Assembly: GCA_015065325.1 (NCBI GenBank) | Contig: SVQO01000008.1 | Location: 7,840-71,839 of the forward strand | Reading direction: 5' to 3' | Length of the DNA stretch: 64,000 nt | From: Oscillospiraceae bacterium | GTDB lineage: Bacteria > Bacillota > Clostridia > Oscillospirales > SIG627 | In this document: in pieces, positions 25,390-42,510 of the stretch | How the letters are laid out: the number at the start of each line of letters is the position of its first letter | Numbering within the stretch: position 1 is the first letter of the stretch | The notes under the pieces: generated by a model | The model's input: only the letters and a program-made list of their open reading frames with translations | The model's database searches: none | Told to the model about the DNA's origin: nothing | Translations under genes and position numbers: made by a program

Positions 25390-25411
25390 GGGGGAGTTGC
25401 AATGCTTTTTA

Positions 25412-26776
25412 TCATTCAATGCTCATGGTACCGTCAGCAAGATCCTTTGCTACAAACGGGATAAAGTAAAACGGTATCGTGAGCAATTTTTGTTCGGGAT
25501 TGTAACCGTAATTGTTTTTGGAAACCTTGATAGCATATTCAAATTTGTTGTGATTTGAAAACTTTTCCAGAGAATGAAGTGTTCCGCGACCTTTCTTGAC
25601 GTCCATCGGGTAAAGCTTGTTGTCTGACTCAATGATGAATTCAAGCTCAGATGATGCTTTTCCGCGCCAATAAAAGAGCTTGTGTCCTTTAGCGACCATC
25701 TCATTTGCCACAAAATTTTCAAAGAAAATACCTGATAAGGTGTTTTCTCTTTCGCCGGATATGAACGATGCCGCGTTAATTCCGCTTTGGTAAGAAAACA
25801 TACCGATATCACCAAGGAACAGACGAAAATTACTTTCATTGTCCGGCATAAGCGGCGTTGTTACGTGCTCCTTTAATTGGAAAGACTGATTGACGACATG
25901 CGCCATCATAAGCCACTGAATAGAAGTTGCAAAATCTCTTGTTTTGCTCTTTTCCTCAATTAGTCCCGGAGAGAAGTTTTTGGATTCCTTGTTTAGCTCC
26001 CGGTAAATATTTTGGAACAAGATTCTAGAACGTAAAACGGCTTCTGGGCTTGCTTGATACAACTCCATATCTGCAAGGTAATTGTCATATAAAACCTTGA
26101 GAATTTCTCTTGCTTCAAGGATATTGTTGCCGTCAATATAGGCTTCTACAGCTTCCGGCATTCCTCCTATGAGAAGATACTTATATACTTGTTCCATTGC
26201 CAATTCGTGGATCTTGCCATCCAACGGTTTTTTGCTGTCATAGGCTTTTTTTATGGCGCTGTAGAGCATCTTGTTGCTATTCATCAAAAACTCGTCTAGG
26301 GTCATGGGATAAACGGTTATTTGGTTGATCTTGCCTACAGGAAAGAGAAATTTACCGTTATCTTTAGAACCTCGCTTGTGAAGCTCTCTTTGAAGTTTGA
26401 TGCGCACCATTGAGCCGGTTGCAATCACGGGAATGTTTCTGAAATCCTGACAGAAGTATTTGAGCGAGGAAATAATATTGGGACACTCCTGTACTTCATC
26501 GAAGATCAGAAGGGTTTTTTCGTCAATCTGTTTTCCCTTGCGTAGGGAAATATATTCGATGATTTTCTCTGCATTTGCTGTTTCGGAACAGAAATTTCGG
26601 ATTTCATCTTCTTTTTTGCAATCCACATAGACGTAGTTATTTGCGTAATAGCGTTTGGCAAAGAGCTCTTGAATAAGATAGGTTTTACCAACCTGCCTTG
26701 CGCCCCAAATGATCAAAGGCTTTTTGCGTTCGTTGTTATTCCATTCTACTAATTTTTGCAATGCAATTCGTTCCAT
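25412..26776 (-). CDS. AAA+ ATPase with C-terminal DUF4143-like region (AAA_14 family)
   Basis: Walker A 'IIWGARQVGKTYL' and Walker B-like 'LLIFDEVQ'. Start at MERIAL after GGAGG. A spot count of one 60-nt line gives about 43% GC. Confidence 0.7.
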   Translation of the reverse strand: MERIALQKLVEWNNNERKKPLIIWGARQVGKTYLIQELFAKRYYANNYVYVDCKKEDEIRNFCSETANAEKIIEYISLRKGKQIDEKTLLIFDEVQECPNIISSLKYFCQDFRNIPVIATGSMVRIKLQRELHKRGSKDNGKFLFPVGKINQITVYPMTLDEFLMNSNKMLYSAIKKAYDSKKPLDGKIHELAMEQVYKYLLIGGMPEAVEAYIDGNNILEAREILKVLYDNYLADMELYQASPEAVLRSRILFQNIYRELNKESKNFSPGLIEEKSKTRDFATSIQWLMMAHVVNQSFQLKEHVTTPLMPDNESNFRLFLGDIGMFSYQSGINAASFISGERENTLSGIFFENFVANEMVAKGHKLFYWRGKASSELEFIIESDNKLYPMDVKKGRGTLHSLEKFSNHNKFEYAIKVSKNNYGYNPEQKLLTIPFYFIPFVAKDLADGTMSIE

Positions 26777-26805
26777 AAATGAACCTCCAAGCAACTTGTA
26801 TATAT

Positions 26806-26834
26806 ATTATAGAACAACTTGCACCATTTTACAA
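26806..26834 (-). promoter_or_regulatory. Sigma-A-like promoter of the ATPase cassette
   Basis: On the minus strand, TTGTAA-N17-TATAAT about 30 nt upstream of the RBS. Confidence 0.5.
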
Positions 26835-26966
26835 TAGAAAAAATGAGTTATTTGCACCTTTTTTTACTCTGTTTCATCTATTATTTGCACCTTTTGTCGA
26901 TTCGGAGCGGAAAAGCAGGTAAAACGCGCTTTTTTCGGAAACATGAAAACGTCTCATCGAGGGCGC

Positions 26967-26985
26967 TTTCGGTGCTTTGGGATGA
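26967..26985. repeat. 19-bp direct repeat, right copy (abuts the activase stop codon)
   Basis: Identical to 25371-25389. The second hairpin arm is absent here. Confidence 0.85.
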
Positions 26986-27777
26986 TCAGGAGAAAAGCGA
27001 TTGCACTCGGTTGATCTCTTCCTCGGTGGGGATTTGACGGGGCAGGGTGTTTTCCATTCCCAGTGCCTTGTACTTGGAGCCTGCCAGATCGTGATAGGGG
27101 AGGACCTTTACCTTTTCGATACAAGTAAGAGGACGGAGAAATTCTGCCAGTTTTTCCATCTGGTCGTCGTTGTGCCCGGGTACGTAGGGAATGCGGATCT
27201 CTACCTTTGCCCCCACGGAATTTAAGTAAAGAAGGTTTTCCAGAATTTGCTCGTTGCTTTGCCCCGTGCAGCGGATATGCACCTTTTCGTCAAAGGCTTT
27301 CAGATCGTATAGGAACAGGTCGGTATAGGGCAAGACCTTCGTCAAGGTTTCCCGCGGCACGAAGCCGCAGGTATCTACGGCGGTATGGATCCCCTCCTCC
27401 TTCAGCCGCTTTAAAAGCTCGGCGGCAAAGGGTGCCTGAGAAAGACATTCTCCCCCCGAAAGGGTCACACCGCCTCCGTTTTCGTAAAAGGGGCGATCCT
27501 CCAGCAAAAGGGGCATCAGCTCCTCGACGGTCATTTCCTTTCCGTAGAGGATGCGGGCTTCCCCGAGACAGTCGCGGGGGTGAAAGTCCTTGCTTTGACA
27601 GGCGCCGCAGCCGATACATTTGTTTTCGAAAAAGGCGGTCTGCTCCTCAAAGGAGATGCCCTCGGGATTGTGACACCAGATACATTTTAAGGGGCACCCC
27701 TTGAAAAAGACCGTGGTGCGGATGCCGGGGCCGTCGTGGACGGCAAAGCGCTTCAGGTCGGTAATTTTTGCTTTCAT
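26986..27777 (-). CDS. Glycyl-radical enzyme activating enzyme (radical SAM)
   Basis: 'FAVHDGPGIRTTVFFKGCPLKCIWCHNPE' (CxxxCxxC) plus a ferredoxin-like 'CIGCGACQ'. The ATG at 27777 overlaps the GRE stop (ATGA). Confidence 0.85.
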   Translation of the reverse strand: MKAKITDLKRFAVHDGPGIRTTVFFKGCPLKCIWCHNPEGISFEEQTAFFENKCIGCGACQSKDFHPRDCLGEARILYGKEMTVEELMPLLLEDRPFYENGGGVTLSGGECLSQAPFAAELLKRLKEEGIHTAVDTCGFVPRETLTKVLPYTDLFLYDLKAFDEKVHIRCTGQSNEQILENLLYLNSVGAKVEIRIPYVPGHNDDQMEKLAEFLRPLTCIEKVKVLPYHDLAGSKYKALGMENTLPRQIPTEEEINRVQSLFS

Positions 27778-30008
27778 CGGGCGATATTCTCCGCTCTCAG
27801 AATGTAGGCGTCCTGCTCCGCCTTTGACATATTGTTCCAAAGGGTGTTCCAGCCGCAGACGCGCACCTGCAGATTGCGGTACTTCTCCGGATGCTCCTGT
27901 GCGTCCCGCAGGGTTTCGGAACGGAAAACGTTGAACTGGATGGATTGTCCGCCGCCCTTTAAATAGGTGGTCAAAAGATTGTTCCAGACCGCAAAGCCTT
28001 CCTCCCCCGAAAGGGTACTGGGATGGAGCATTATGTCTAGGCAGAAGGACTCGTGGTAATTGGAGGGACAAAGCTTCAGAGCCGAGGAGATCAGCGCAGT
28101 GACGCCTTGTTTATCCATTCCCGCCACGGGGGAAGCGTTTTTGGAAAGCTCCTCTCCGCTTTTTCTTCCGTCGGGGAGGGCACCGGTCAAAGCGCCGTGT
28201 CGGATGAAGCCGCGTGCCGAATGGAGGATGGCTTTATACACACCGCCCTTTTCGTTGGGCACGTTGTTTACCTTTTGGGCGAAAAAGTCTGCCATTGCCG
28301 CCGCATAGGTGTCGGCAAGAGGGTCGCCGTTGCCGTATTTGTGGGGAGATTTTTTGATCTTTGCCCGCAAAAGCTCGCTTCCCTCCCAGTTGTTTTTCAA
28401 CACTTGGGCAAGCTCGGTCAGGGTCAGTTCCTTTTGATCGTAAACGAATTCCTTTACCGCAAGGATGCTGTCCACTGCACTGGCAAAGGAGCAGTTCAGC
28501 ATTCCGTTATTGCAGAATTTTACACCGCCGCCGTAGCCGTCCTTACCTTTTTTCAAGGCGCTTTCCACGGTTGCGGAGTACATGGTGGAGGGATTGACGA
28601 AGGCAAGGTATTTTTCCGCGTCGTTGGTGATACGGATCCCGATCTCCACAAGGTTTTCCCACTGCTTGAGAAAGGCAAAATAAAAATCCTCGAAGGTGAC
28701 AAGGCTTTCGAGCTCGCCCGTTTGCACGCCGATCTGCTTGTTTAACGCAGTGTCAAAGCCGTTGGAGAATACGTATTCCACGGCTTTTGCGGCGTTGATA
28801 TAGCCGGAGGTGGAGCATGCCTCGTTGCCGCGGACGCCCGTTTCGTAGCAACCGCGGATATCGAAATTCAGCGCTTCCTCGTAGGTGGCGCCGTATCCCA
28901 TCACCGCCTTGATCATTCCCGGCTCACAGCAGAATACAAGGCTTGCGTTTTTGCGCCGCACCATATCGAAGGCTTTTCTTAAAATGGATTCGGGCGTGTT
29001 TTCGTTGATCTTTAATTGGATCTTGGGGTTGTAGATCTCAAGGCCGTCGTAAACCTCCAGGATCAGGTGAGAAAGCGCGTTATATTTGCTGCTGCCGTCG
29101 GAATTGGTTCCGCCCAAATAAAAGGGCTGACCCCAATAGTTGCCGATGGCGGACCACTGCATCAAAAAGTAGGAGAGAAAATGTCCCAGCTCCTCCTCGG
29201 TGTATCTGCCGCTTTCCAGATCCGTCTTATAAAAGGGATAAAGCGTGCCGTCCAGACCATTGCCGAGAGAACGGACCTGATAACGGTCGATGCACTCCGA
29301 GATGATAAAGTAGAGATAGATCAGCTGGAGTGCCTCGTAGAAGGTGGTGGGAGGACCGTGGCGCAGATGCTCCAGACAGACGGTGATCTCCTTTGCTTTT
29401 TCAAAGCTTTGCTTCTCGGCAAGGGCGATCATTCGGTCGAGCAGATGCAGGATCGCCGTATATTGAAGCTCGATCCCCTCGAAAAAGGCGTCTGCTTCTT
29501 CGGTTAGGGTTCCTGCCGTCCGATGCATTTTGCGATATTTGCGGGCGCGCTCAATGATCCCCGTAAAGCCAAGCTTCATCAGGGAGTCCCAATCGGGAAC
29601 CACATGGTCGTAATCCACCCAGTACATCATAGCGCCGCAGGCGTTGACGTCCTCGGAAAGCCGTACCAGCTCGGGGTCGCGAAGCGCAAGGGATTCCTCC
29701 GCCCATTTGCTGAAGGTGACGCATTTTGCAAGACGGTCCAGGGAATACAGACCCACGAAATAATCGTGCTCGTTGAGATAGATCCGCTGGTGCTGCAAAA
29801 GGTACTCGATTGCCCGCGCCTTTGCCACGGGATGGGGAAGGTTATCCAGGGGAAGGGCTTTCAGTCCCTCCAGAAGTTCCTCGTCGTCAAGTCCGCTTTC
29901 CTCCAAATAGCCGATGCCGTGGTACGCCATTCGCTTGAAGGGATTGAATTCTTTTTCGGGATCGTGGTATTTCCGTTCCACGAAATAACGGTCCGAAGAA
30001 TGGATCAT
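27774..30008 (-). CDS. Glycyl-radical enzyme, PFL2/dehydratase-lyase clade, substrate unknown (744 aa)
   Basis: Gly-radical motif 'RVCGWN' (Gly codon 27852-27854). Cys loop 'RGCYETG' (Cys codon 28848-28850), 332 residues upstream. The ATG at 30008 follows AAAGGAG. The longer ORF-track N-terminus overlaps the divergent AraC gene. Confidence 0.8.
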   Translation of the reverse strand: MIHSSDRYFVERKYHDPEKEFNPFKRMAYHGIGYLEESGLDDEELLEGLKALPLDNLPHPVAKARAIEYLLQHQRIYLNEHDYFVGLYSLDRLAKCVTFSKWAEESLALRDPELVRLSEDVNACGAMMYWVDYDHVVPDWDSLMKLGFTGIIERARKYRKMHRTAGTLTEEADAFFEGIELQYTAILHLLDRMIALAEKQSFEKAKEITVCLEHLRHGPPTTFYEALQLIYLYFIISECIDRYQVRSLGNGLDGTLYPFYKTDLESGRYTEEELGHFLSYFLMQWSAIGNYWGQPFYLGGTNSDGSSKYNALSHLILEVYDGLEIYNPKIQLKINENTPESILRKAFDMVRRKNASLVFCCEPGMIKAVMGYGATYEEALNFDIRGCYETGVRGNEACSTSGYINAAKAVEYVFSNGFDTALNKQIGVQTGELESLVTFEDFYFAFLKQWENLVEIGIRITNDAEKYLAFVNPSTMYSATVESALKKGKDGYGGGVKFCNNGMLNCSFASAVDSILAVKEFVYDQKELTLTELAQVLKNNWEGSELLRAKIKKSPHKYGNGDPLADTYAAAMADFFAQKVNNVPNEKGGVYKAILHSARGFIRHGALTGALPDGRKSGEELSKNASPVAGMDKQGVTALISSALKLCPSNYHESFCLDIMLHPSTLSGEEGFAVWNNLLTTYLKGGGQSIQFNVFRSETLRDAQEHPEKYRNLQVRVCGWNTLWNNMSKAEQDAYILRAENIAR

Positions 30009-30122
30009 CGCATTCACTCCTTTTCCCCGATTATAGGACGAAAAATAATAAATTTGAATAGATAAAAGAAAAATACTTGACTGTTTCGAAACAAAACCGT
30101 AAAATATCCTTGAGGTGATGAA

Positions 30123-30893
30123 ATGCAGGAATTTATGAAACGGGATCTTACCGTTGAAAAAATCGAGCTTGCCTGCCTTGTGGAGGCGGGGAAGGCTGCC
30201 CCCGTTCACAAAAACAGAAAAAGCCACGGTCTTGCTTTGTTCCCCGGAGGAGAGAGGATCATTTCCTTCGAGGGGAAAAAGCTTCTCGTGGGCAAGGATA
30301 CCGTGGTATATTTCCCAAAGGGCTCCGATTATACGGTGCGCGATCGGATCCCCTTCGAATGCTACGCCATCAATTTTCAGCTGGCGGGGGACGAGGTCTT
30401 CGAGCCTTTTGCCGTTGGGGTAAAAAACGTGAACGCGGTCTTGCAAAGCTTTCGGGAAAGCCAGAGGATCTGGAGAAAAAAGAGCGTCGGCTATTCGTCG
30501 AAGATCAAAGCCGAGCTGTACAGCATCATTTATCAGCTGCAAAGCGAAAACCGGATCCCCTACGCCAAGACCTCCGTCATCGAGCCTGCTGTCCGCTATA
30601 TTCATTCCCATTACGACAAGGAGGAGATCCGTGTTTCCGACCTTGCCGAGCTTTGCGGGATCAGTCAGGTATATTTGCGCTCTCTGTTTCAAAAGCGCTT
30701 TGCCACCACTCCCGTAGGGTATATCGAGCACCTGAGAATGAGTCGCGCCGAGGAGCTCCTGAGCTCCCAGATGTACGCGGTCCGCGACGTATGCTTTCTC
30801 TCGGGCTTCCGTGATGAAAGCTACTTCTCCCGCCGTTTCAAAAAGCAGTTTGGAGTCCCTCCCGGGGACTATGCAAAATCCTCCCGAGCTTGA
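30123..30893 (+). CDS. AraC-family transcriptional regulator (AraC-2, cupin + HTH)
   Basis: 'LAELCGISQVYLRSLFQKRFATTPVGYIEHLRMSRAEELL...FLSGFRDESYFSRRFKKQFGVPPGDY'. It is divergent from the GRE. Confidence 0.8.
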   Translation: MQEFMKRDLTVEKIELACLVEAGKAAPVHKNRKSHGLALFPGGERIISFEGKKLLVGKDTVVYFPKGSDYTVRDRIPFECYAINFQLAGDEVFEPFAVGVKNVNAVLQSFRESQRIWRKKSVGYSSKIKAELYSIIYQLQSENRIPYAKTSVIEPAVRYIHSHYDKEEIRVSDLAELCGISQVYLRSLFQKRFATTPVGYIEHLRMSRAEELLSSQMYAVRDVCFLSGFRDESYFSRRFKKQFGVPPGDYAKSSRA

Positions 30894-30908
30894 TCGGGAG
30901 GATTTTTT
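30870..30908 (+). repeat. 39-bp direct repeat, copy B (last codons of AraC-2 + terminator)
   Basis: TATGCAAAATCCTCCCGAgctTGATCGGGAGGATTTTTT. See 25157-25195. Confidence 0.85.
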
Positions 30909-30911
30909 GTA

Positions 30912-31036
30912 TTATTCCGGCATGTTGGAGAGCATATTTTCGATAAAGATTCCGTAGCCGCGGGTGGGGTCGCCCACCAAAACGTGGGTCACCGCACCCA
31001 CCAGCTTGCCGTTTTGAATGATGGGGGACCCGCTCA
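30912..31036 (-). pseudogene. Displaced copy of the spoIVB 3' end (last ~41 codons + stop)
   Basis: It matches 38873-38997 over 125 bp with 5 mismatches and encodes ..[40 protein letters not shown]. No start codon, and a stop lies upstream in frame. Confidence 0.85.
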
Positions 31037-31309
31037 CGCTGATGTCAAGTAGGGGACAAAAGAATTTTGTGTTTTTCTGCGGTTTTTATGCGTTTTTGCA
31101 GGTAAAAGGCAGGTTTTGGCACACCTCAACCGCGATCCCTAAGTTGACATAGATGAATTGTCGAAACCAGTCGCTTTTAAATTTTCTCTCACTTTCGACA
31201 AATTCTGATATTTGCCGGACCGTCGGTTTTTCCTCCTAAATAGTCAAAGCCTCCGGACAACCGGAGGCTTTGCTTGTTATGTGCTATTTTTTACGATTAA
31301 GATCGCGTT

Positions 31310-32230
31310 TTAGCTGTGCTCCAAAACGCGCCTTGCCGTGTATTCGTCGGTGATCAGCGTGTCGATCATTTTTGTTCGCAGCGCTCCCGCGATTGCTTCT
31401 GCCTTTTCTTTTCCACAGGCGATGGCAACGGATTCCCTTGCGTTCTTGATATTGTCCACGGAGGCGCACAATGTGTTGCTATACAGATTGACGAACGTTC
31501 CGTTTTGATCGAAAAAGTGTGTGGCTATGTCACCGATGGCTTGGCAGTGGATATCGCTGTACCCAAATGTTTTGCCGAAGATATCCAGGATTTCCGTGTT
31601 TCCTATTCCCAAAATGGCAAGATCGGCGGTATTCCACATATCCTGCATTCTCTTGTAATAGCCAAGCTGCTTCAGTAACACAGAATCTTCATCGCTGTCA
31701 GCAAGATAGGGAAACCATGCGCATTTGGGCGTGGCATCCAGCTTATCTGCCATCTTCCGGGCTAACTCGTTAGAGGAAAAATAAGAATGTTCAGTATCGG
31801 TAGCGCCAAATAACGGGAATACGGTGTTACCGGCGGTAGAGAGCTTGGGAAGGTTTTGAATCAATTCTTGAATCGTCCGTCCCCAGGATAGGGCAATCTT
31901 TTGGTTGCCCTTTTGGACAATTGGCAGGATATATTCAACCGCCGCCTTAACCGTCATAAGCCGATGCACCGACTCATTTCTGCCGCTGACACTGCATACA
32001 ACACAGTCCCGAATGCCAAAGATAGCACAAATCTGCTCTTCTAGCTCTTTGCAGTCCTTTGGCGGATCGTGTATGATGATTTCTACTATTTTTTCTTCTA
32101 TGGCATCGCTTAAAAGCTTGGAAACCGTTTGCCGGGACAGATGCAAAGTTTCTGCGATTTCCTGTTGGGTCAGGTTTTCCTTATAGTAAAGGGTCGCGAC
32201 TTCGGACATCAGTATTTTTTCTGTATTCAT
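31310..32230 (-). CDS. SorC/DeoR-type sugar-binding transcriptional regulator
   Basis: 'VATLYYKENLTQQEIAETLHLSRQTVSKLLSDA' HTH plus a CggR-like sugar-phosphate-binding domain. Start at MNTEKIL. Confidence 0.75.
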   Translation of the reverse strand: MNTEKILMSEVATLYYKENLTQQEIAETLHLSRQTVSKLLSDAIEEKIVEIIIHDPPKDCKELEEQICAIFGIRDCVVCSVSGRNESVHRLMTVKAAVEYILPIVQKGNQKIALSWGRTIQELIQNLPKLSTAGNTVFPLFGATDTEHSYFSSNELARKMADKLDATPKCAWFPYLADSDEDSVLLKQLGYYKRMQDMWNTADLAILGIGNTEILDIFGKTFGYSDIHCQAIGDIATHFFDQNGTFVNLYSNTLCASVDNIKNARESVAIACGKEKAEAIAGALRTKMIDTLITDEYTARRVLEHS

Positions 32231-32362
32231 AGACTTGCTCCTAAGTGTTGGTGACTTAATTCTACAATGAAATGCGTAGTTTGTCAATTATTTAACATTT
32301 GTAATTGACAAATGTTAAATAAAAGGGTATAATGTTTCTGCAAAAACAAAGGAGGGAACAAA

Positions 32363-33232
32363 ATGCTCGTTTCAATGAAAGAAATGCTGGAAGATGCCCG
32401 TAAGAACCATTACGCCCTTCCTGCATTTGATGTTAGCAATTACGATATGATGAAAGCTGTTTTGGAAGCCTGCGAGGAGGAGCGGTCTCCGGCACTGCTT
32501 ATGGCACTGGGTGTGGATCTGCAGGGCAGAGATATGAACCTGCTGGCATCCATGATCCGCAGCGCATCGGACCATTTCAATATTCCTGTTTGCCTGCATC
32601 TGGATCACGCAACAGATTTTACCATGATCGCAAAGGCTATTGATGCAGGCTTTAGTTCCGTTATGTACGACGGCTCCGTCCTGGATTTTGCCAGCAACGC
32701 GAAAAATACCGCTCAGGTGGTAAAGCTCGCACACGCCCACGGCATCACTGTGGAAGCAGAGCTTGGCCATGTGGGTAACGGCAGTGTGGGGTCAATCAGT
32801 GAAACCGGCACGGATACCGATCCCGGCGAGAGCCTGACTGTCCCGGAGGAGGTCGCAAAATTTGTGGAGATCACCGATGTGGATGCCCTTGCGGTAGCTA
32901 TTGGTACCGCCCACGGTGTATATCAGAAGACACCCGAGCTGCGAATTGACCGGCTGGACGAGATCACAGCTGTTTGTCAAAGGCCCTTAGTGTTGCATGG
33001 CGGTAGCGGCACACCTGATGAGCAAATGCAAGAGGCCATCCGACACGGCATCACTAAGATCAACATCTATTCCGATGTGGTAGCCGCTATGAACAAGGGT
33101 CTGAAAGAAAAGCTCAACGCTATGGATAACCCCGCCACCTGGCCTTTTCTGGTGTTTGCCGATGCCCGGGAGGAGATGAAGGAAGTAGTCCGGAACAAGC
33201 TGCGTATCTTTGGCAGCGCCGACCGTCTGTAA
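32363..33232 (+). CDS. Class II ketose/fructose-bisphosphate aldolase family
   Basis: 'YALPAFDVSNYDMMKAVLEACEEERSPALL', 'HLDHA', 'EAELGHVG' and 'LVLHGGSG'. Confidence 0.8.
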   Translation: MLVSMKEMLEDARKNHYALPAFDVSNYDMMKAVLEACEEERSPALLMALGVDLQGRDMNLLASMIRSASDHFNIPVCLHLDHATDFTMIAKAIDAGFSSVMYDGSVLDFASNAKNTAQVVKLAHAHGITVEAELGHVGNGSVGSISETGTDTDPGESLTVPEEVAKFVEITDVDALAVAIGTAHGVYQKTPELRIDRLDEITAVCQRPLVLHGGSGTPDEQMQEAIRHGITKINIYSDVVAAMNKGLKEKLNAMDNPATWPFLVFADAREEMKEVVRNKLRIFGSADRL

Positions 33233-33244
33233 GGAGGAAACAGG

Positions 33245-34486
33245 ATGAAAACAAAAGCAGTTCGCCTTTATGGTGAAAATGATTTGCGTTTGGAAGAATT
33301 TGAATTGCCGGAACTGAAAAACGGCGAGATTCTCATCAAGATCATTTCCGACAGCGTTTGTATGTCTACCTACAAGACTGTGAAACAGGGCGCAAAACAT
33401 TTGCGTGTACCGGACAATGTAGCAGAAAAGCCTGTGATCATCGGCCACGAATTCTGCGCGGAAGTTGTGGAAGTTACGGATAAATGGAAAGATCAATTTC
33501 ACGTGGGAGATAAGGTGGCTATGCCTCCTGTGCTGTCCTATCTTGGCGGTATGCAGACCGTTGGTTATTCCTTCGGCGAGATCGGCGGCGTTTCTACATA
33601 TTCTATTGTTTATGAGCACATCATTGAAAACGGATATCTGATGAAGCTGGATAGTGACTGTTTCTTCAAGGGATCGCTGATCGAGCCTGCTTCCTGCGTA
33701 CTCCGGGGTTATAAGGGGAGTATGCATTTAGATACCGACGGCGTTCCTTATACAAATCTCAGATCCGGCGGCAAGGTGGCCATTCTGGCAGGCTGCGGTC
33801 CTATGGGCCTTGTAGCCATCGACCTGGCTATCCACGGCACCGTGAAGCCCTCCGTTGTGGTGGTCACCGATCTGGACGAGAATCGTCTTGCCAGAGCGGA
33901 GGAAATCTTCTGTCCTGAAAAGGCTGCACAGGACGGCATCAACCTGATCTTCAGCAATTCCACCCATGCCGATGAGCTGATTGCGCTGGCGGGCGGAGAA
34001 TTTGATGATGTGTTTGTGTATGCCCCTGTTCCGGCGGTTGTGGAACTGGGTGATGAAATTCTGGGCTTTGACGGCTGCCTAAATTTCTTTGCAGGTCCGC
34101 TGGATCAGAGGTTCAGCGCAAAGTTCAATTTCTACAATGTCCACTACAAGCAGCATCATGTGTCCGGAACCAGCGGCAGCACCATAGAGGATATGCAGGA
34201 TATTGTACGCCTGATTAGCCAGCAGAAGATTGATCCTGCGGTAATGATTACCCATATCGGCGGTATCGATGCAGCGATTGATACTACCATACATCTGCCC
34301 CAGATCCCCGGCGGCAAAAAGCTGATCTATACCCATATCAACTTGCCCCTGACTGCCATTGCTGATTTTGCTGCTTTGGGAGAAACAGATGACCGGTTCA
34401 AGGCCCTCGATACCCTTGTAAAGGAAGGTAACGGCTTGTGGAATGCAAGAGCCGAAAAATATTTCCTGGAGAATTTTGGAGGTTAA
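33245..34486 (+). CDS. Zinc-binding dehydrogenase, sorbose-1-phosphate-reductase-like MDR (413 aa)
   Basis: 'ISDSVCMSTYK', 'IGHEFCAEVVEV' and 'ILAGCGPMG'. Confidence 0.6.
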   Translation: MKTKAVRLYGENDLRLEEFELPELKNGEILIKIISDSVCMSTYKTVKQGAKHLRVPDNVAEKPVIIGHEFCAEVVEVTDKWKDQFHVGDKVAMPPVLSYLGGMQTVGYSFGEIGGVSTYSIVYEHIIENGYLMKLDSDCFFKGSLIEPASCVLRGYKGSMHLDTDGVPYTNLRSGGKVAILAGCGPMGLVAIDLAIHGTVKPSVVVVTDLDENRLARAEEIFCPEKAAQDGINLIFSNSTHADELIALAGGEFDDVFVYAPVPAVVELGDEILGFDGCLNFFAGPLDQRFSAKFNFYNVHYKQHHVSGTSGSTIEDMQDIVRLISQQKIDPAVMITHIGGIDAAIDTTIHLPQIPGGKKLIYTHINLPLTAIADFAALGETDDRFKALDTLVKEGNGLWNARAEKYFLENFGG

Positions 34487-34488
34487 CT

Positions 34489-35568
34489 ATGAATTTACCG
34501 AATCATATTTTCAGCGGAAATTGGAAAGAGGGACATGTGCAGGGAATTGCCGTGGATACGCAGCGGGGTTTTGTATATTACTCGTTCACCACGATCCTTT
34601 TGAAGACTGATTTGCAGGGAAATCCTCTTGCCAGCGTTAAGAATATCATTGGTCATCTTGGCTGCATTGCCTTTGACAAGGAAGCAAACCGAGTGTATGG
34701 CTCTCTGGAATTGAAACATGATATTATCGGCAGAGGAATTATGGAGCGGACCGGCATAGAATTGGCGGAGGAAGATGCCTTCTATTTAGTGTCTTTTGAC
34801 TTGAGCAAGCTGGATCGCATGGAGATGGATGCAGAAAAGGACGGCATTATGCAGGCGGTCTATGTACGGGATGTGGTCCGGGATTACAGTGAAAAGGACG
34901 ACCTGACCGGACTGCCGGGACGCTATGGCTGTGGCGGTATGGACGGCGTTTCCATTGGACCGATCTTTGGTGCAGATGCGGATAGTCCCAGAAAACTGTT
35001 CCTTGCGGAAGGAATTAAAAAAGAGCTTGACCGCAGCGACAACGATCATCAGGTGTTGCTGCAGTACGATCTTTCTATCTTTGATACCTATGGTCAGCCC
35101 CTGACTCAGCTGCAACCCCATCATAACGGACCAGAAAGCTGCGAAGAGAGATATTTCTTCTACACAGGCAATACCAATTGGGGAATTCAAAACTTAGAAT
35201 ATGATCCCTATACTCGCTACTGGTTTACAGCCGTTTATCCGGGCGCAAAGCCGGAATTTGAAAACTTCCGTATGTTTGCCATTGATGGTGCAATCCCTGC
35301 AAAGAAAGCACCCCTAGAAGGCAGACCGGGAGAAACGGGATTGCTTCTGACTTCTGCCAAAATCGGAGAGGGACAGAAAGACGGCAGGATCTACGGCTCT
35401 CACCTGAAATGGGGTTCTACAGGAATTGCATCCCTTGGAAACGGAGAATTCTACATCTCCCATCACGGAATGATCAAGGAGCAAGCGCTGCATTTCTCCA
35501 ATCTGAAGCTGTATTACTTTGATCCTGAACACCCTGAGTGGTTCCGCAAAAAATATGAAGTTTTGTGA
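34489..35568 (+). CDS. Hypothetical protein (possible beta-propeller), 359 aa
   Basis: ATG at 34489 after GGAGG, 2 nt past the previous stop. I recognise no family. Confidence 0.5.
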   Translation: MNLPNHIFSGNWKEGHVQGIAVDTQRGFVYYSFTTILLKTDLQGNPLASVKNIIGHLGCIAFDKEANRVYGSLELKHDIIGRGIMERTGIELAEEDAFYLVSFDLSKLDRMEMDAEKDGIMQAVYVRDVVRDYSEKDDLTGLPGRYGCGGMDGVSIGPIFGADADSPRKLFLAEGIKKELDRSDNDHQVLLQYDLSIFDTYGQPLTQLQPHHNGPESCEERYFFYTGNTNWGIQNLEYDPYTRYWFTAVYPGAKPEFENFRMFAIDGAIPAKKAPLEGRPGETGLLLTSAKIGEGQKDGRIYGSHLKWGSTGIASLGNGEFYISHHGMIKEQALHFSNLKLYYFDPEHPEWFRKKYEVL

Positions 35569-35640
35569 TAATAACAACAACCGGGTTCAGGCATTTTGCC
35601 TGAGCCCGGCTTTCTGTATTTTACGGATAGCATTTGTATA

Positions 35641-35760
35641 TTATGCTGCAGCATCTAACATATTTTCAATAAAAATACCATACCCGGTAGTCGGATCGTT
35701 CACAAGGACATGGGTCACGGCGCCCACCAGCTTTCCGTCTTGGAGAATGGGGCTGCCGCA
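35641..35760 (-). pseudogene. Second, diverged copy of the spoIVB 3' end
   Basis: It encodes ..[38 protein letters not shown]. No start codon. It lies between the two AT-richer islets. Confidence 0.75.
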
Positions 35761-35789
35761 CACACACGTGTCAATATAGGACCAACCAT

Positions 35790-37820
35790 TCAGAATTGAA
35801 CGAAAAATTCATCCGTTACATCTATACCGTTTCGTAAAATCACGCAGTTTACCAATTTCTCGTTTTTGATCTCGGCTTCAACCGTGATTCCGCCTTTTGC
35901 CGCTAATTTAAAGGAGACGTCGGTGGTGTGGGGGAATGCGGGCAATAGATGAATGGTATTACCCTCTGCTTGCAAAAGCATATCGTTTACGGCAGAGATG
36001 AAAATCCCTGCGGCGGTTGAAAACCAAGGGCGGTTCCGTCGGACCGGCTCATTGATTTCAAACAATTCGCCAAAAACTCCGGCAGATGGATAGACCTGCT
36101 TCAGGGCTTTGTAAGCGTTTTCTGCCATTTTTGCTCTGGCATATCCTAATGCTTTCCAACAGGCATACCACGGTGAAATGTTGTTCCCCACCGGATACAT
36201 ATTCCCGTAGGCGCGCCCATTTATTTCGAAATCTTCCCAGGCGCAGAGCATTTTCTCATCAGAATCATTTAAAAGGTCAAAGGGAAATTTGCCGGCGAAA
36301 ACTGCAATGCTTTTTTGCTTGCAGTTCAAGTGCGGAACATACATTCCGTTTTCTGCCGGCAAATTTTCATAAAGTTTTTTAGAGATATAGGCACACTCGG
36401 CTGAATATTTTTCGTCTGTTTCCAATATGTCGGCGGCTTTTTTGCAACATTGAAGGAGCTTAATGGCGCCGCAGGCAGTCATAAACGGATTTTGTATGGA
36501 GGAGCCAAGCCGTTCGAGATCGGTGCATTTTCCGATATAATATTGATCGCCGTCTTTATACAGCATATGCTTTGTGATAAATTTTGAACAAGCACGAATC
36601 ATGGGATAACAGTCTCTCAAAAAATCAACGTCTTTTGAATATTCATAGTATTCGAATGCGCCAATACCCACGAGAGGGATATGAAAAATATGATCCAACC
36701 AGTGCCCTTCCGCTGCCAGTTCAATTCGATCAATTTCTCCTGTTTGCCAATGAAAACGAGCCATATCTTCTGTCTCGGTGGTTCGATGGGAATCACTTGC
36801 CCGATGGATCGCCACATCCAAACAAACGTTCTTTCTGTATAGTGGCACTCTTTTGGCAAGCTCCAATCGGTTTGCACTCAATAGACCATAATAAGAGGTA
36901 TATTCATCAAACGCAAAGTAGCGCCCATCCCAACTTCCGTTATTGAACCCTACCGCGATGGATGCTTTCGTGGTGTTGCATTTAACCGAATAAAGCGACG
37001 TTTTATAAATGGAGTTAAGCTTTTCATCTGCGGTTTTTACATATCCAAGCTTGTAGAAGGAATCATAATGATCTGTGCATTCCTTTAGCAAACCCTCAAA
37101 GCCAAGCGCGTCAATGGTTTGTTTGTATTGATGGAGCACCTCTCTAAAATCGGCTTTTTCCATATCATCTTCAAGATAATAGTAAAAGGTTACGGTTTCG
37201 CCCGCAGATGCCGAAAAGGAAATTTGAGCACCGGTGTCGGTGAGATTTACAGAAAAATCTTTATCAACAAAGAAATGAATTTCGCCGGTAAAAACATCCA
37301 TTCCATACATTTTAAAGCCGATGCAACAAATGTTTTCATGCTTCTTCGTATATAAAACTTGCATATACCGGCTGATGCTTTCATTATATCCGCAAAGGGT
37401 TACTTCGTATGCGAATTCCCTTGTGCCGGAGATGTTTTCAAATGTTTTTTGAAGAGCATAGATATTATGAGAGGGGTGAATAAAGCCTTTTGAACGGATG
37501 GTTGCCCCACTTTCATATAAGCACTCGCTTTCAAAAAAGCCATTTTCAACGTTCAGCTCCTGTGTCCATTGCTCGAGGGAGCTTCCCTCGCGGAACGTAA
37601 ATTTTCCAAAGGGAAACAGCCGCGCCCGAACGTCGTTGCACATTGCGCTTCTTCTTCCGTAGTGAACAACGATTCCGTCGAAGGCTCGAACTCCTTTCTT
37701 TTTATAATCATCGAAGGTATAGCCGAGCATTCCTTCTGCATCCGCCGCAAAAGAAATATCGCCGTTGGAAAGCATTGGCGGGAAATAGCAATTTTTGTTT
37801 TCCTCACTATGATAAGTCAT
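35790..37820 (-). CDS. Hypothetical protein, putative (alpha/alpha)6-barrel glycoside hydrolase
   Basis: A large soluble protein paired with a divergent AraC regulator. Its C-terminal half has the helix-rich, W/Y-rich composition of six-hairpin glycosidases. No specific family motif was recognised. Confidence 0.35.
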
Positions 37821-37988
37821 AATATTTACCATCCTTTTCCGAGTTATCTTTTATTTTATGATAAAACGAAACTTTTAAGAAATCAATTGGTTAATTACTC
37901 AAAAGATTATTCAAATTACGCATTTTGATTGACTTATCGAAGAAAACAATATATGCTTTATATAAAGCTGTTTAGGGAGTGAAAAGCT

Positions 37989-38774
37989 ATGCCGATGTTT
38001 CTGAAGAAGTTTACAAATGCAGATAGAAATTTATTCGTAACGGAATTCGGGCACAGTATGTATACAGAATCCAAACGGGTAGGTCCGTGGTCCCGAGGAA
38101 TCTATATTTTACACTTTGTTTCAAGGGGATATTGCGAATTTTCGGGGTTCAAAGCGGAAGCAGGGCAGGCTTTTTTAATTGCAAAAGAACATCTGCATTC
38201 GTTTACCACCAGCGAGGATTATGAGCATTATTGGATTGGTATTTTAGGAGACTCATTGGAAAAAATCTTTGAAGGATTTAAGATAGGATATAAGAGCCAT
38301 CAGCTGTTTTGGGTAGAAAACATTGATTTTGTTAAAACACTCTTTGCTACCGCGTCCGAAAACCTGCAAAGCGGGGCGCCTGAGTTTGCCGATTCGTATG
38401 TGCTTTCTATATTTACCGCGGTTCTTCCGTTGTTAAAATCTGATGCTCAATCATCTATGCATTACAAAATCAACTATGCGGAAAGGGTGAAGATCTTTAT
38501 TGAAACCAATTACTCATATCCGATTAAAATGAGTGATATTGCAAAAGAGATGCATTTATCCGAAAAGCATATGTATCGTTTGTTTATGAATCGATTTGGT
38601 ATTTCGCCCCAAAAGTACCTTGTAAAAACCCGTATGGAGGCAGCGAAAGAATTGCTTTTGAAAAAGCAATTATCGGTAAAAGAGATTGCATATATCGTCG
38701 GATATACATCCCTGCCGACTTTCTCAAAAAAATATTCAGATTACTTTGGCGTTAGTCCATCCAAGTACCAATAA
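37989..38774 (+). CDS. AraC-family transcriptional regulator (AraC-3)
   Basis: 'IAKEMHLSEKHMYRLFMNRFGISPQKYLVKTRMEAAKELL...IAYIVGYTSLPTFSKKYSDYFGVSPSKY'. Confidence 0.8.
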   Translation: MPMFLKKFTNADRNLFVTEFGHSMYTESKRVGPWSRGIYILHFVSRGYCEFSGFKAEAGQAFLIAKEHLHSFTTSEDYEHYWIGILGDSLEKIFEGFKIGYKSHQLFWVENIDFVKTLFATASENLQSGAPEFADSYVLSIFTAVLPLLKSDAQSSMHYKINYAERVKIFIETNYSYPIKMSDIAKEMHLSEKHMYRLFMNRFGISPQKYLVKTRMEAAKELLLKKQLSVKEIAYIVGYTSLPTFSKKYSDYFGVSPSKYQ

Positions 38775-38872
38775 AATGCTCACCGCGAGATAGCGGTGAG
38801 CATTTTATTTCTTGTAGGGAACGTCACAAAGGCCGTTCCCTACCTTTTCGCAGCAATTTGCTGCTGTTTTTT

Positions 38873-40045
38873 TTATTCCGGCATATTGGAGAGCATATTT
38901 TCGATAAAGATTCCGTAGCCGCGGGTGGGGTCGCCCACCAAAACGTGGGTCACCGCACCGATGAGCTTGCCGTTTTGAATGATGGGGGACCCGCTCATTC
39001 CCTGAACGATGCCGCCCGTCATTTTTAGAAGTGCGGGATCGGTAATGCGAAGGACAAAGTTTTTGCTGTCCCGATCCTTTCCGATGATTTCTTCGATTTC
39101 GATTTCGTATTCTTTCTTGCCGCTGCCGTCCAGTGTGCAGAGGATGGACGCTTTCCCGGGCTTCACTTGATTTTTCAGGCCGATGGGAATGCTTTTTCCG
39201 CCCTTGGGCGTTTTTTCATCCAGGATGCCGTAGACGCCTTGAGGAGAGTTGGAGGTCAGGACGCCTACGTTGGACTGCTCCAGACTTCCTTTCAACTCTC
39301 CCGGTGAGCCTTCGCCACCCTTGGTGATGCTTTCCACCTGTGCGTGGCAAACACTGCCCGACCCAAAGGGAAAGGGAATTCCCGTTTCCGAGTCGCAGAC
39401 GGGATGGCCGAGTCCGCCGAAGGCACCCGTTTTCGGGTCTATGAAGGTAACGGTGCCGATGCCTGCCGCACCGTCCCGTACCCAAAGCCCTGCCCGATAC
39501 CCTGCCGCGTCCGCAGACAGAGCGGGCGTCAGAGTCAGCTCCAGGGCTTCCTCGCCCCGTTCCACCGTCAGACGAATGCTTTTTCCTTCGCTTTTCGCGA
39601 TAATCTTGGAAAAGGTGGCGGCACTTTTCAGCTCCATTCCGTCAGCCTTCAGGATTACGTCTCCCTTTTTCAGACCTGCATCCTTACCCGGGGAAACGCT
39701 TTTGTCCCCCGTTTTGATGCTGTCAATGCCCGTTACCAAAAGACCGCGGGTCTCCATACGGAGGCCGAACAGATCGCCTCCGCAGAGAAGCTCCGTTTTT
39801 TCATAGTAATTTAAGGAAACCTCCTTAACGGGAATGACCCCGAAGGCGAGGACCTGTCCCTGCGCGGGAATGGCTCCGTTTTCCTCACTTTCGCAGGAAA
39901 AGCAAAGCACGCTCTCCGGCGTTTCACCGGTAAAAAGGCTTACGGTGTCGGGGTAAAGGTAGTCTCCCAGCCCGACCAGATTTAAGAATACAAAGAAAAG
40001 AATCATCACAAAGGACAAAGAAGCTTTTGCGATTTTTCTGATCAT
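38873..40045 (-). CDS. spoIVB: Stage IV sporulation protein B, S55 signalling peptidase (PDZ + peptidase)
   Basis: N-terminal TM, PDZ domain 'GLKKGDVILKADGMEL', 'GIGTVTFIDPKTGAFGGLGH' and catalytic 'GMSGSPII'. The ATG at 40045 was chosen because the upstream extension has no support. Confidence 0.8.
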   Translation of the reverse strand: MIRKIAKASLSFVMILFFVFLNLVGLGDYLYPDTVSLFTGETPESVLCFSCESEENGAIPAQGQVLAFGVIPVKEVSLNYYEKTELLCGGDLFGLRMETRGLLVTGIDSIKTGDKSVSPGKDAGLKKGDVILKADGMELKSAATFSKIIAKSEGKSIRLTVERGEEALELTLTPALSADAAGYRAGLWVRDGAAGIGTVTFIDPKTGAFGGLGHPVCDSETGIPFPFGSGSVCHAQVESITKGGEGSPGELKGSLEQSNVGVLTSNSPQGVYGILDEKTPKGGKSIPIGLKNQVKPGKASILCTLDGSGKKEYEIEIEEIIGKDRDSKNFVLRITDPALLKMTGGIVQGMSGSPIIQNGKLIGAVTHVLVGDPTRGYGIFIENMLSNMPE

Positions 40046-40241
40046 GATGTGCTCCCGGTTGTTTTTGTCTTTTTCAGACAGGTTTAATTTGCGCAAAATA
40101 AGAGAAAATATGTTGTAATAAAATCGGTTTTGCAAAGAGTTTCTTCCAAAGAATCTGACGGGAAAATTTGGATTGTTATTGAAATGCGTTTCGATATGTG
40201 ATACAATAAATAAAAGTATTCGTTTGATGTGCGGAGGAAAT

Positions 40242-40793
40242 ATGGCAAATAACGGAAATGAATTTTTACCCAATTACGTAGAGCATTTGGTTCCTTTGCA
40301 GGAAAAGAAATACGTCACTCCCAAAAAGCTGGGGATCATTGCTCTTGCCATTGTTTTGACTCTGGGAGTGATCGCCGCCACCATTTTGTCCAATTTGCAG
40401 CTCCTGGGCGGTTTGATCTTCTTCTTGCTTTTGGGCATTGCGGTCCTGGTCTGGTACTTGTGGCGCTTCGTATCCATTGAGTATGAATATACCATTCTGG
40501 GCGGAGAGATCTCCTTTGAAGCCATTTACGGCAGAAGACAGAGAAAGCCCTATTACAGTGCCCAGCTCAAGCGCATCGAGAAGCTTGCCCCCGTTGGCGG
40601 AAAGTTCGTTTCGAAGGCGGATTTTCAGGGTGTTACCCGCGAGGTGTTCTGTGCGGCGAAAATGAATAACCCGAAAACCTGGTACGCCATTGTTAAAGAG
40701 GAAAACGGGGATAAGACCCTTTTATTCTTTGAGGTGACGGAAAAGGCGGAGAAAGCCCTCCGTTTTTACAACGGCAGAGCCTTCTTCGGATAA
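40242..40793 (+). CDS. Hypothetical two-TM membrane protein
   Basis: GGAGG lies 5 nt before the ATG. Two hydrophobic helices are followed by a soluble domain. Confidence 0.55.
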   Translation: MANNGNEFLPNYVEHLVPLQEKKYVTPKKLGIIALAIVLTLGVIAATILSNLQLLGGLIFFLLLGIAVLVWYLWRFVSIEYEYTILGGEISFEAIYGRRQRKPYYSAQLKRIEKLAPVGGKFVSKADFQGVTREVFCAAKMNNPKTWYAIVKEENGDKTLLFFEVTEKAEKALRFYNGRAFFG

Positions 40794-40870
40794 TTTTTTC
40801 AGTTAATTTTCACACAGTATTCATTTTTAATCGTTATAATCGAAGCAGTTTCAAGAAAGGAGACTCTTTT

Positions 40871-42262
40871 ATGTTTGATAATAATCCCTTCCCCGGCTCC
40901 GATCAGAAGCCTGAGGGAATGAATGACAATCCCGTACAGCAGGAAAACGGTTCCGCTCAGCCCGAGCCCGAGCAGCAGGCAACGTATCAGCAGACGTCCT
41001 ATCAGCAGACGCCTCCTCCCAATTTCGGAGCACCTTACGGAATGCCCCCCACGCCGCCCCAGCCTCCCAAAAAGCCTAAGAATAAGCTGGTCGGCTGGAT
41101 CATTGCGCTGGCAGTTTTGTATTTTCTGATGCTGGCGGGCATTTTCGTTGCCATCGGAACGGGCGTGCTGAACTCTGCCGATAGCGGCAAGGAAACGGAG
41201 AAGAACGCGGCTCAGGGAAATGCCGATGCCGATGACAATGGCAAAAAGACCTCGGAAAAGAACGAGGGCGAAAAAACGAAAGAAGACAAGAAGGATAATC
41301 CTCCTCTTGAGCCAAATACGCTGAAGGAGGATCCCGAGGCGATGACCGCCACGGAGCTTTATAAAGAAAACGTTGAAAGTGTCGTATTCGTAGAAGCCAA
41401 TTATGCCAGAGGTCAAGCAACCGGCTCAGGCTTTGTCATCGATGCGAAGAACGGCTATATTCTCACCAACTATCACGTGGTGGAGGAGAGCGATGATATT
41501 GCCGTCACCTTCTCTAACTCCGACAGCTACGACGCGGAGCTGATCGCAGGCGACGAGATCAACGACGTTGCCGTATTGCAGATCAAGGCAGAGGATCTGA
41601 CCGCCGTTTATATCGGCGATTCCGACTCTATTTTGATCGGTGATGACGTTCTGGTCATCGGTAATCCTCTGGGAGATCTGACCTTTACTTTGACCCGCGG
41701 TGTTGTTTCCGGCACGGAGCGTGATATCAATACGGGCGAATACACCATCAATACCTTCCAGACCGACGCTGCCATCAACTCAGGCAACTCCGGCGGTCCT
41801 GCATTCAACGCCACCGGCGAGGTGATCGGTATTGCTTCCGCGAAATACGCCGCCACCGGCGTAGAGGGAATCGGCTTCTGCATTCCCATCAACGATGCTA
41901 TGGCAATCGCCGAGGATCTGATCGAGTTCGGCTACGTGAAGGGAAGACCTAACTTCGGTATTTCCGTTTCCGACTCTCCCGGATATGAATACGTCACCGA
42001 CGAGCGCGGCAGACGCGTTTTGGTGGAGACCGCTTACGGTGCCCGCATCGAAGAAGTGGGTAAGGATTCCTGTGCCGCCGATGCCGGTCTGAAGCCCGGT
42101 GACATCGTAACCAAGCTGGATAAAACCAAAATTGAAAATGCCAACGATCTGATCAACGCCAAAAACCAGCACAAGGCAGGCGATACCGTAACCCTTGAGG
42201 TTTACCGTGACGGTGAGACCATCGAGCTGGAAGTTACTCTGGACGAATATTCCCCCGAATAA
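40871..42262 (+). CDS. HtrA/DegP-family S1C serine protease with C-terminal PDZ
   Basis: A Q/P-rich N-terminus and a TM, then 'TNYHVV', 'NDVAVLQI', 'NSGNSGGPAFN' and the PDZ motif 'GLKPGDIVTKLD'. Confidence 0.85.
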   Translation: MFDNNPFPGSDQKPEGMNDNPVQQENGSAQPEPEQQATYQQTSYQQTPPPNFGAPYGMPPTPPQPPKKPKNKLVGWIIALAVLYFLMLAGIFVAIGTGVLNSADSGKETEKNAAQGNADADDNGKKTSEKNEGEKTKEDKKDNPPLEPNTLKEDPEAMTATELYKENVESVVFVEANYARGQATGSGFVIDAKNGYILTNYHVVEESDDIAVTFSNSDSYDAELIAGDEINDVAVLQIKAEDLTAVYIGDSDSILIGDDVLVIGNPLGDLTFTLTRGVVSGTERDINTGEYTINTFQTDAAINSGNSGGPAFNATGEVIGIASAKYAATGVEGIGFCIPINDAMAIAEDLIEFGYVKGRPNFGISVSDSPGYEYVTDERGRRVLVETAYGARIEEVGKDSCAADAGLKPGDIVTKLDKTKIENANDLINAKNQHKAGDTVTLEVYRDGETIELEVTLDEYSPE

Positions 42263-42348
42263 TTGCTTTGTAAAATCCGCTGCAGCTTCGTCAAGGTGCG
42301 ATAAATTGCTCAGTCATTTACAGTAGTAAACTCCTTCGCAATTTTCTT

Positions 42349-42510
42349 CCTTTCCTCGCTTCGCAGGATTTTACTTCGCAATTCGGCTGCGGCTTTGTCA
42401 GGACATCGAAAAAAACTCGGTTATTTGCGTTTAGCAAACGCCCTCGTTTTTTTCTCGCCTTCCTCGTCTCGCACAAATTTACTTCGCAATTCGGCTACGG
42501 CTTTGTCAAG
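42349..42510. repeat. Two ~55-bp direct repeats in the htrA/GH2 convergent spacer
   Basis: 42349-42402 matches 42456-42510. The core TTTACTTCGCAATTCGGCT(G/A)CGGCTTTGTCA (42370-42400 and 42478-42508) differs at 1 base. A partial inverted match, GTAAAATCC, is at 42270. Confidence 0.8.

Follow-up and report, generated by a model that had tools for sequence, protein, structure and literature searches.

How does a single sporulation gene come to be followed by two further copies of its own 3' end? The question is raised by a 64,000-nucleotide (nt) stretch of the genome of an Oscillospiraceae bacterium (contig SVQO01000008.1 of assembly GCA_015065325.1, positions 7,840 to 71,839; hereafter the window), in which the end of spoIVB occurs three times and the copies delimit two small groups of genes, islet A between the two displaced copies and islet B between the second of these and the intact gene. 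We consider it likely that the Met350/Ser351 region of spoIVB is the bacterial attachment site (attB) of elements carrying triplets of large serine recombinase (LSR) genes, and that the window holds two stacked, att-flanked units that lack a recombinase.

The intact gene (38873..40045, minus strand) encodes a protein of 390 residues in which Pfam and NCBIfam searches identified a PDZ domain and an S55 peptidase domain (PF05580, 9e-79), and which scored 366 bits against the NCBIfam model TIGR02860 (cutoff 305). Its reading frame is unbroken and full length, with no interruption of the skin type. A repeat search returned one direct family of three members, at 30906-31036, 35632-35762 (65%) and 38867-38997 (95%). 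The current 3' end of the gene (e_B; 38873..38997, minus strand) comprises 41 codons including that of the catalytic-type serine. Displaced copy 1 (e_0; 30912..31037, minus strand) is a GTG-initiated relic of 41 codons and is 96% identical to the intact 3' end over positions +1 to +126, with five mismatches on the coding strand; the first 32 nt are the same in both. Displaced copy 2 (e_A; 35641..35763, minus strand) reads as a 40-letter peptide and is 64-67% identical to either of the others at the nucleotide level and 85% at the amino acid level. Both displaced copies were recovered by repeat search, alignment and tblastn, the last 44 residues of SpoIVB matching copy 1 with E=6e-23 and copy 2 with E=5e-16. 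All three copies lie on the same strand and end in TAA.

The homology begins in each case at the codon equivalent to M350 of ..GIVQG-M-SGSP, which is ATG in the gene and GTG in both displaced copies. The serine that follows M350 is presumably the active-site residue, to judge from the GDSGGP motif that chymotrypsin-like proteases have. On the 5' side of this boundary the displaced copies are interrupted by in-frame stops and tblastn detects no SpoIVB similarity, and both have the hexamer TTGACA immediately before the boundary, where the intact gene has none. An initial annotation, made from the sequence alone, had described three same-strand spoIVB ends, each with a stop codon, the five mismatches between the intact end and copy 1, and a loss of homology at the catalytic-serine codons; repeat search, alignment and tblastn bear out all of these points. 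It had also noted that the displaced copies share TTGACA and a (L/I)-D-x-x-V reading upstream of the boundary. The hexamer belongs to a conserved non-coding arm described below, and the peptide motif is merely the translation of that arm. TTGACA was also considered as the -35 box of a relic open reading frame (ORF) and ruled out, since it lies only 5-6 nt from the GTG. Copy 1 is listed in public gene calls as a 41-residue Peptidase_S55 coding sequence (locus L103, 10790-10915); such mini-ORFs are att relics rather than genes.

The same junction was found in related genomes. One genome per species was scanned, giving 80 spoIVB loci from uncultured Eubacteriales/Oscillospirales-type metagenome-assembled genomes of animal and human guts, with SpoIVB proteins 39-76% identical to that of the window. 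When the last 44 residues were used as a tblastn query, extra same-strand fragments were detected 3' of an intact spoIVB in 9 of the 80 loci, nearly all of them beginning at the same residue, and these loci contain 10 arm-type junctions with the boundary at the exact nucleotide seen in the window. A conserved arm of ∼26 nt, tGTTG(T/G)(C/T)CC..TA..TTGACA....C, precedes all of the full-length displaced fragments; it usually stands behind an A-rich tract and is conserved from -25 to -1, where intact genes have coding sequence. Junction alignments place arm P_A (TTCTTTTGTCCCCTACTTGACATCAGC) at 31038..31064 in front of copy 1 and arm P_B (tgGTTGGTCCTATATTGACACGTGT) at 35764..35789 in front of copy 2, both on the minus strand. 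P_B is of the subtype found in loci L003, L050 and L063, and P_A matches the arm of L127 at all 27 positions although the flanks are only ∼70-75% identical; the arms of L006 and L046 are degenerate. The cargo behind the arms differs from species to species (AraC, aminotransferase, ornithine cyclodeaminase and metallo-beta-lactamase-type hydrolase genes in one case, and helix-turn-helix (HTH) proteins, a GH32 enzyme or an SLH protein in others), and in the genome loci as in the window the last cargo gene often stops 1-60 nt short of the arm.

Outside these genomes the arm is accompanied by recombinases. An alignment of the fragments, used as query against IMG/VR, matched 22 contigs, nine of which hold the fragment alone, starting at residue 349/350 and preceded by the same arm; in all nine, three tandem genes encoding proteins of ∼550, ∼568 and ∼530 residues end ∼45 nt before the arm. 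Pfam assigns Resolvase, Recombinase and usually Zn-ribbon domains to these proteins, which identifies them as LSRs. Metagenomes, mostly from human gut, were then scanned with an IUPAC pattern of the arm and fragment start, giving at least 120 junction contigs, of which 94 had the 600 nt or more of 5' sequence needed for evaluation. An LSR gene ends within 400 nt of the junction in 70 of the 94, the triplet stands behind a small gene or spacer in 4 more, and no LSR is present in the locus in the remaining 20. The LSRs were found by tblastn and Pfam; their motif is Y-x-R-L-S-x-E/D-D, which a strict serine/tyrosine recombinase regular expression misses. A tyrosine-recombinase expression gave two matches only, neither of them adjoining a junction. 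One contig, L219, contains a complete element of ∼8.6 kb, in the order spoIVB, ParA, ParB-like, AAA_14/DUF4143 ATPase, three LSRs, arm and displaced fragment. The target is thus a single nucleotide position at the M350 codon in the window and in the 10 genomic, 9 viral and at least 120 metagenome junctions.

Several further matches in these collections touch on the recombinases or on possible free forms. In two loci the displaced fragment is followed immediately by a further serine recombinase gene, complete in L085 (6843-7873) and without a catalytic domain in L127 (oriented 1068-2276), so that arrays can hold a second recombinase-bearing or decaying element downstream. Several of the 'viral' IMG/VR contigs L088-L099 end a few hundred nt from a full-length spoIVB 3' end, which fits provirus-boundary calls or assembly breaks at a repeated site. 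The matches in phage databases are unannotated human-gut scaffolds, MT835737.1 among them with a full spoIVB; MT836038.1 was considered as an excised form and rejected, as it has no terminal redundancy and carries an integrated copy followed by host cobalamin genes. Of the plasmid matches, three lie under genes annotated as spoIVB and two lie where no feature is annotated, including one in Subdoligranulum variabile at 83% identity.

Comparison of the fragments themselves shows that copy 2 has foreign rather than host affinity. It is 80-81% identical in nucleotide sequence to fragments in L003, L050, L081, L127 and L129, but only 64-67% to the other two copies in the window, and its tail of 19 residues equals the tails in L081 and L127. 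The distal end of islet A, arm included, is likewise homologous over 176 nt to the end of the L127 element (178 nt at 75% identity by blastn), with unrelated cargo; in the window this non-coding element-end module, 5' of arm P_A, occupies 31065..31212 (minus strand). As the L127 element carries a truncated LSR lacking the catalytic domain, together with a Y-family polymerase and small ORFs, islet A holds a piece of an element backbone and decay intermediates exist. In L135 the end of a GH95-like gene (65% amino acid identity) abuts an arm and a copy-2-like fragment, so the islet-B unit exists elsewhere in diverged form. Loci L204 and L230 are 99.9% identical from -35 onward, through arm, fragment and flank, and unrelated further 5', where L204 has a cassette of 47% GC containing an XRE-HTH gene plus one that looks HipA-like by eye, and L230 a 61%-GC gene that looks NADAR-like by eye. 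The two contigs present a genuine cassette polymorphism, or turnover, at the same host locus. Among the collected loci no identical cassettes turned up in different hosts, only the L204/L230 polymorphism and two diverged pairs.

Other arrangements at spoIVB ends were noted in passing. A convergent AraC-family gene is very often the first past the spoIVB stop, whether or not an array was detected (L001, L003, L008, L034, L037, L064, L071, L073, L075, and the window at 37989-38774). In L120 (oriented 5396+) and L193 (5920+) the fragment ends after ..AVTHV (CATGTG) and is followed by a shared TG(T/A)GTACGCCCATGATACC, and a partial fragment in L021 (5246-5311) begins at that CATGTG, so that the spoIVB end may contain a second insertion point, used by another type of element that targets the T-H-V codons. 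In L144 (oriented 2884 onward) a fragment of 13 residues jumps into ..ISVTDPDLIAATGGIVQGMSGS.. from the spoIVB body, suggesting a nested or rearranged junction.

We propose that the phage-type partner site, attP, would be the ∼26-nt arm (tGTTGtCC..TTGACA..) joined to a duplicate of the 41 terminal spoIVB codons, and that attB would be made up of the gene-body arm, a core and the gene end. Integration would join the gene body to the element-borne end, keeping SpoIVB intact, while the resident 3' end would become a displaced relic behind the arm, at the element's opposite end. The gene-proximal junction would again be attB-like, and elements could stack there because the incoming end mimics the resident end. 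In the window this reconstituted attB-like (attL-type) site would span 38972..39023 (minus strand), comprising the gene-body arm, TG (38996-38997) and the start of the replacement end; its extent of ±25 nt follows the size common among LSR att sites. The conserved arm, reaching from -25 to -1, likewise has the length expected of an LSR attP half-site. Judging from sequence comparison, the TG of the Met codon is the probable crossover point. This TG, at +2/+3, is all that the proximal junction has in common with the distal one in L050 and in L006, where the base at +1 differs and the serine codon alternates between TCG and AGY, which fits a 2-bp serine-recombinase crossover and leaves no 6-8-bp overlap of the tyrosine type.

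On this model the islets would have arrived one after the other. Islet A, with its SorC-type regulator, aldolase, dehydrogenase and a further protein, lies distally and would be the earlier arrival, having brought copy 2; islet B, with an AraC regulator and a GH95-like protein, lies proximally and would have arrived last. The current gene end would then have come with islet B, an assignment that follows from the integration model, and copy 1 would be the original chromosomal end of spoIVB. Just past copy 1 is a hairpin with a 13-bp stem and a T run (30875..30906), which is probably the original spoIVB terminator. The inferred original downstream flank (27774..30893) comprises a gene for a PFL-like glycyl-radical enzyme (27774-30008, minus strand) and AraC-2 (30123-30893, plus strand), both assigned by Pfam, and the predicted empty-site order is found in L074 and L079, where spoIVB is followed directly by a convergent AraC-2-like gene and then a PFL-like gene in the same orientations. 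The islets themselves are either reduced from LSR-triplet elements or mobilised in trans by them, as non-autonomous att-flanked cassettes. The conserved arms and compact cassettes speak for delivery in trans; the L127 decay intermediate and the degenerate arms of some loci speak for reduced remnants.

Islet A cargo (31213..35640) consists of a terminator (31245-31272), a SorC/DeoR-type regulator (31310-32230, minus strand), and three plus-strand genes for a class II ketose-bisphosphate aldolase (32363-33232), a medium-chain (MDR) dehydrogenase (33245-34486) and a protein without family match (34489-35568). Islet B cargo (35790..38872) consists of a GH95-like or kojibiose-hydrolase-like protein, a weak match (35790-37832, minus strand), the AraC regulator (37989-38774, plus strand) and a terminator (38850-38864); the stop codon of the GH95-like gene (35790-35792) directly abuts arm P_B. 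Pfam and NCBIfam found only regulators and sugar-metabolism enzymes across the islets, with no recombination or transfer module, and no LSR homologue was detected in the window by tblastn (E<1e-4). A search of 27000-42500 against Rfam gave no match. At 41% GC islet B is the lowest of all 3.1-kb segments of the 64 kb; islet A, at 48%, is no outlier from the window mean of 50.5% (sd 2.8%), and the islet flanks are at 52-54%. Composition therefore points clearly to a foreign origin for islet B only.

The initial annotation had the gene content of both islets right, but its AT-rich islets reduce to islet B, and the flanks fall below the 55-58% GC that it had given them. Its central proposal, serial insertions with replacement gene ends, finds support in the shared boundary, the arm, the LSRs adjoining it elsewhere and the foreign affinity of copy 2. 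That no integrase is left agrees with the tblastn and family searches, and the relatives that it anticipated, with spoIVB directly adjoining AraC-2, correspond to L074 and L079 (32-41% identity).

Two segments near the array complete the picture of the window. On the 5' side spoIVB is neighboured by orf183 and a gene for an HtrA-like protease. Beyond the inferred original flank, 25250-27000 has a GC content of 38-41%, well under the window mean, and contains an AAA_14/DUF4143 ATPase gene (called in L103 at 5290-6654, about 25412-26776 of the window), of a family that is also cargo of the complete element L219; this may be a separate acquired segment.

Several observations weigh against this interpretation. 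No LSR homologue was found by tblastn in the window or in the 10-kb flanks of the 80 genomic loci, so that the link to a recombinase rests on homologous junctions elsewhere. No clear centre emerged when the junction profiles were scanned for dyad symmetry, so the crossover call depends on the comparison of attL and attR within loci. The current end is 96% identical to copy 1 and GC-rich while islet B has 41% GC, a likeness that calls for a donor within the species or for subsequent gene conversion between the repeats; in several loci the differences between the proximal copy and the distal one do cluster at the repeat edges, the pattern expected from gene conversion. The orthology of AraC-2 and the PFL-like gene in L074 and L079 rests on 32-41% identity and is uncertain. 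Neither a circle nor any other excised form bearing a true attP turned up. Within the species, the exact SpoIVB protein was present in at least 23 metagenome contigs, as was the exact AraC-2 protein, and none of the at least 23 contigs of this species is free of the islets; the predicted empty junction, of gene body with a copy-1- or copy-2-type end, had no exact match in the metagenome collection, a weak negative because the scan tolerates no single-nucleotide differences. The contigs of this species are colinear with the window with the sole exception of L110 (18742-21173; window equivalent 31305), which is 98.8% identical until 5 nt past the SorC stop and then has different genes (unknown, Cyclase, Amidohydrolase) without arm or copy 1, and could be a strain rearrangement or an assembly join. 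The islets thus appear to be fixed now in this species, and we infer their insertion from comparison between genomes, not from polymorphism within it.

The alternative that competes most closely concerns the state of the islets and not the nature of the site. Instead of dead remnants they could be active non-autonomous cassettes, routinely moved in trans by LSR triplets encoded elsewhere, with the spoIVB end serving as an integron-like platform; we regard this as a serious possibility that falls short of being probable. All 12 arm-type junctions of the genome loci and the window lack an LSR, cargo genes stop 1-60 nt before the arm in many independent cassettes, the P_A arm has been kept identical to that of L127 between flanks of ∼70-75% identity, the GH95-like gene, arm and fragment persist as a unit in L135, and one host locus holds different cassettes in L204 and L230. 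Yet neither a circular cassette nor one cassette in two hosts was found, the islets are fixed across all contigs of the species, the arms of L006 and L046 are degenerate, and L127 shows LSR-bearing elements decaying in place. A wider form of the idea, which we hold only tentatively and think rather unlikely, is that the spoIVB end of gut Clostridia at large is an integron-like platform for recombinase-less cassettes traded in trans by heteromeric LSR triplets. The gene-end (P') arm would have to encode SGSPI(I/L)Q.., so that attL would effectively be attB and attR effectively attP, the reaction would be intrinsically reversible and the site endlessly reusable. The stable, tradable unit would be arm, gene end and metabolic operon, and the three paralogues might each read one half-site, namely the gene-body arm, the element arm and the shared gene-end arm.

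Other routes do without the LSRs altogether. Delivery of the islets, or of islet B at the least, by RecA-mediated (Campbell-type) homologous recombination across the conserved 125-nt end is improbable: the 96% identity of the current end and copy 1 over 125 nt and the clustering of mismatches at repeat edges would suit it, but copy 2, at ∼65%, is too diverged for efficient homologous recombination, the conserved arm, invariant boundary and adjacent LSRs are left unexplained, and a circular donor already equipped with the arm and fragment module is still required. Long gene-restoring 3'-end repeats are typical of islands inserted by tyrosine integrases at tRNA genes or at guaA, and an island of that classical type whose integrase was later lost would account for the repeats here; it is nevertheless very improbable, given that no tyrosine recombinase adjoins any junction in the regular-expression screen, that LSR triplets stand at the arm in at least 74 of 94 junctions, and that L050 and L006 lack an identical overlap of 6-8 bp at the boundary. 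Lastly, the extra copies might be relics of tandem duplication or pseudogenised spoIVB paralogues, the genes between them never having been mobile. Segmental duplication does occur at this locus, as in L064 (16064-16180), where an extra copy (16073) extends into the gene body, includes the gene-body arm with a mutated active-site motif (MSDRP), and is a duplication of the gene end with no arm-type junction. The copies in the window, however, stop at the nucleotide of more than 100 other junctions, behind a conserved arm that is not genic; SpoIVB similarity is absent 5' of the boundary, and copy 2 has foreign affinity, which together make this reading scarcely credible. Nor did the fragments prove to be unrelated S55-domain pseudogenes, and the extra fragments of relatives bound islets of their own, different from those of the window.

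If integration by LSR-triplet elements is accepted as the origin of the array, it provides a natural attB/attP pair, with a probable 2-bp crossover, for widespread and uncharacterised three-subunit serine recombinases of gut Clostridia, a group with few genetic tools. The spoIVB end would be a recurrent hotspot for the entry of carbohydrate-utilisation and other accessory operons into Oscillospirales genomes, and the stray 41-residue 'Peptidase_S55' CDSs in annotations would be explained. The combination of a gene-restoring arm with serine recombinases also raises the question of how directionality is controlled when attL resembles attB. The process is known in kind; spoIVB as its target would seem newly recognised. 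A literature search of incomplete coverage yielded no paper that connects spoIVB with serine recombinases, attB or integration, and the target may already be described.

Among known systems, streptococcal integrative and conjugative elements (ICEs) with serine-integrase triplets insert in mutT, traG or hsdM, disrupt them and leave repeats of 2-8 bp (Ambroset et al. 2016, PMC4701971). The spoIVB elements resemble them in having three tandem LSRs at one extremity, a single orientation to the target and site specificity. They differ in bringing a replacement gene end of ∼123 nt, so that the target stays intact and the repeat is ∼125 nt, and in being small (8.6 kb in L219, with ParA/ParB), with no conjugation module in the parts examined; the islets of the window, having no recombinase, would be derivatives or dependants of such elements and not members. 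Skin-type elements, which carry an LSR of the spoIVCA type and interrupt sigK, are a precedent for an LSR element in a Firmicutes sporulation gene (PMC5025042). Skin splits its gene and needs excision in the mother cell, whereas spoIVB would be restored on insertion with no developmental excision needed.

The stacking of small recombinase-less cassettes on the promoter-proximal side, each with a conserved end site and the newest nearest the platform, recalls integrons. In contrast to these, no IntI lies near the site and no attC-type site is apparent; inspected by eye, the arm shows no R''/R' core-site pattern, and the partner site is a coding sequence regenerated by each cassette.

Two systems come nearer. 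Cis-mobilisable elements (CIMEs), found at the 3' end of fda beside ICESt1 and ICESt3 of Streptococcus thermophilus, are flanked by att sites, depend on a tyrosine integrase, and presumably originate through decay and are moved by accretion with an incoming element. Like them, the islets of the window are att-flanked, lack recombination and transfer genes, and lie in tandem at the site of an autonomous family, and their junctions of arm and fragment are structurally identical to those of the LSR-bearing elements; unlike CIMEs, they are associated with recombinases of the serine type and are small metabolic units in which the final gene runs right up to the att arm. The staphylococcal cassette chromosomes (SCC, SCCmec) use the serine recombinases CcrA and CcrB, keep the 3' end of rlmH (orfX) intact, stack in tandem through gene-end repeats, and include ccr-less cassettes that depend on recombinase in trans. 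The spoIVB elements share with them the use of several LSR paralogues, a conserved gene whose 3' end is kept intact as target, and the formation of tandem composite islands. They differ in target, in host clade, in having three recombinases, and in a repeat of ∼125 nt against the ∼15-18 nt of SCC, and LSR3, which reaches only 53-71 bits with the CcrA, CcrB and CcrC models (cutoffs 700-900 bits), is thus not a Ccr orthologue. By analogy, SCC may be considered the closest functional counterpart of the spoIVB elements, and the CIME the closest concept for the two islets of the window.

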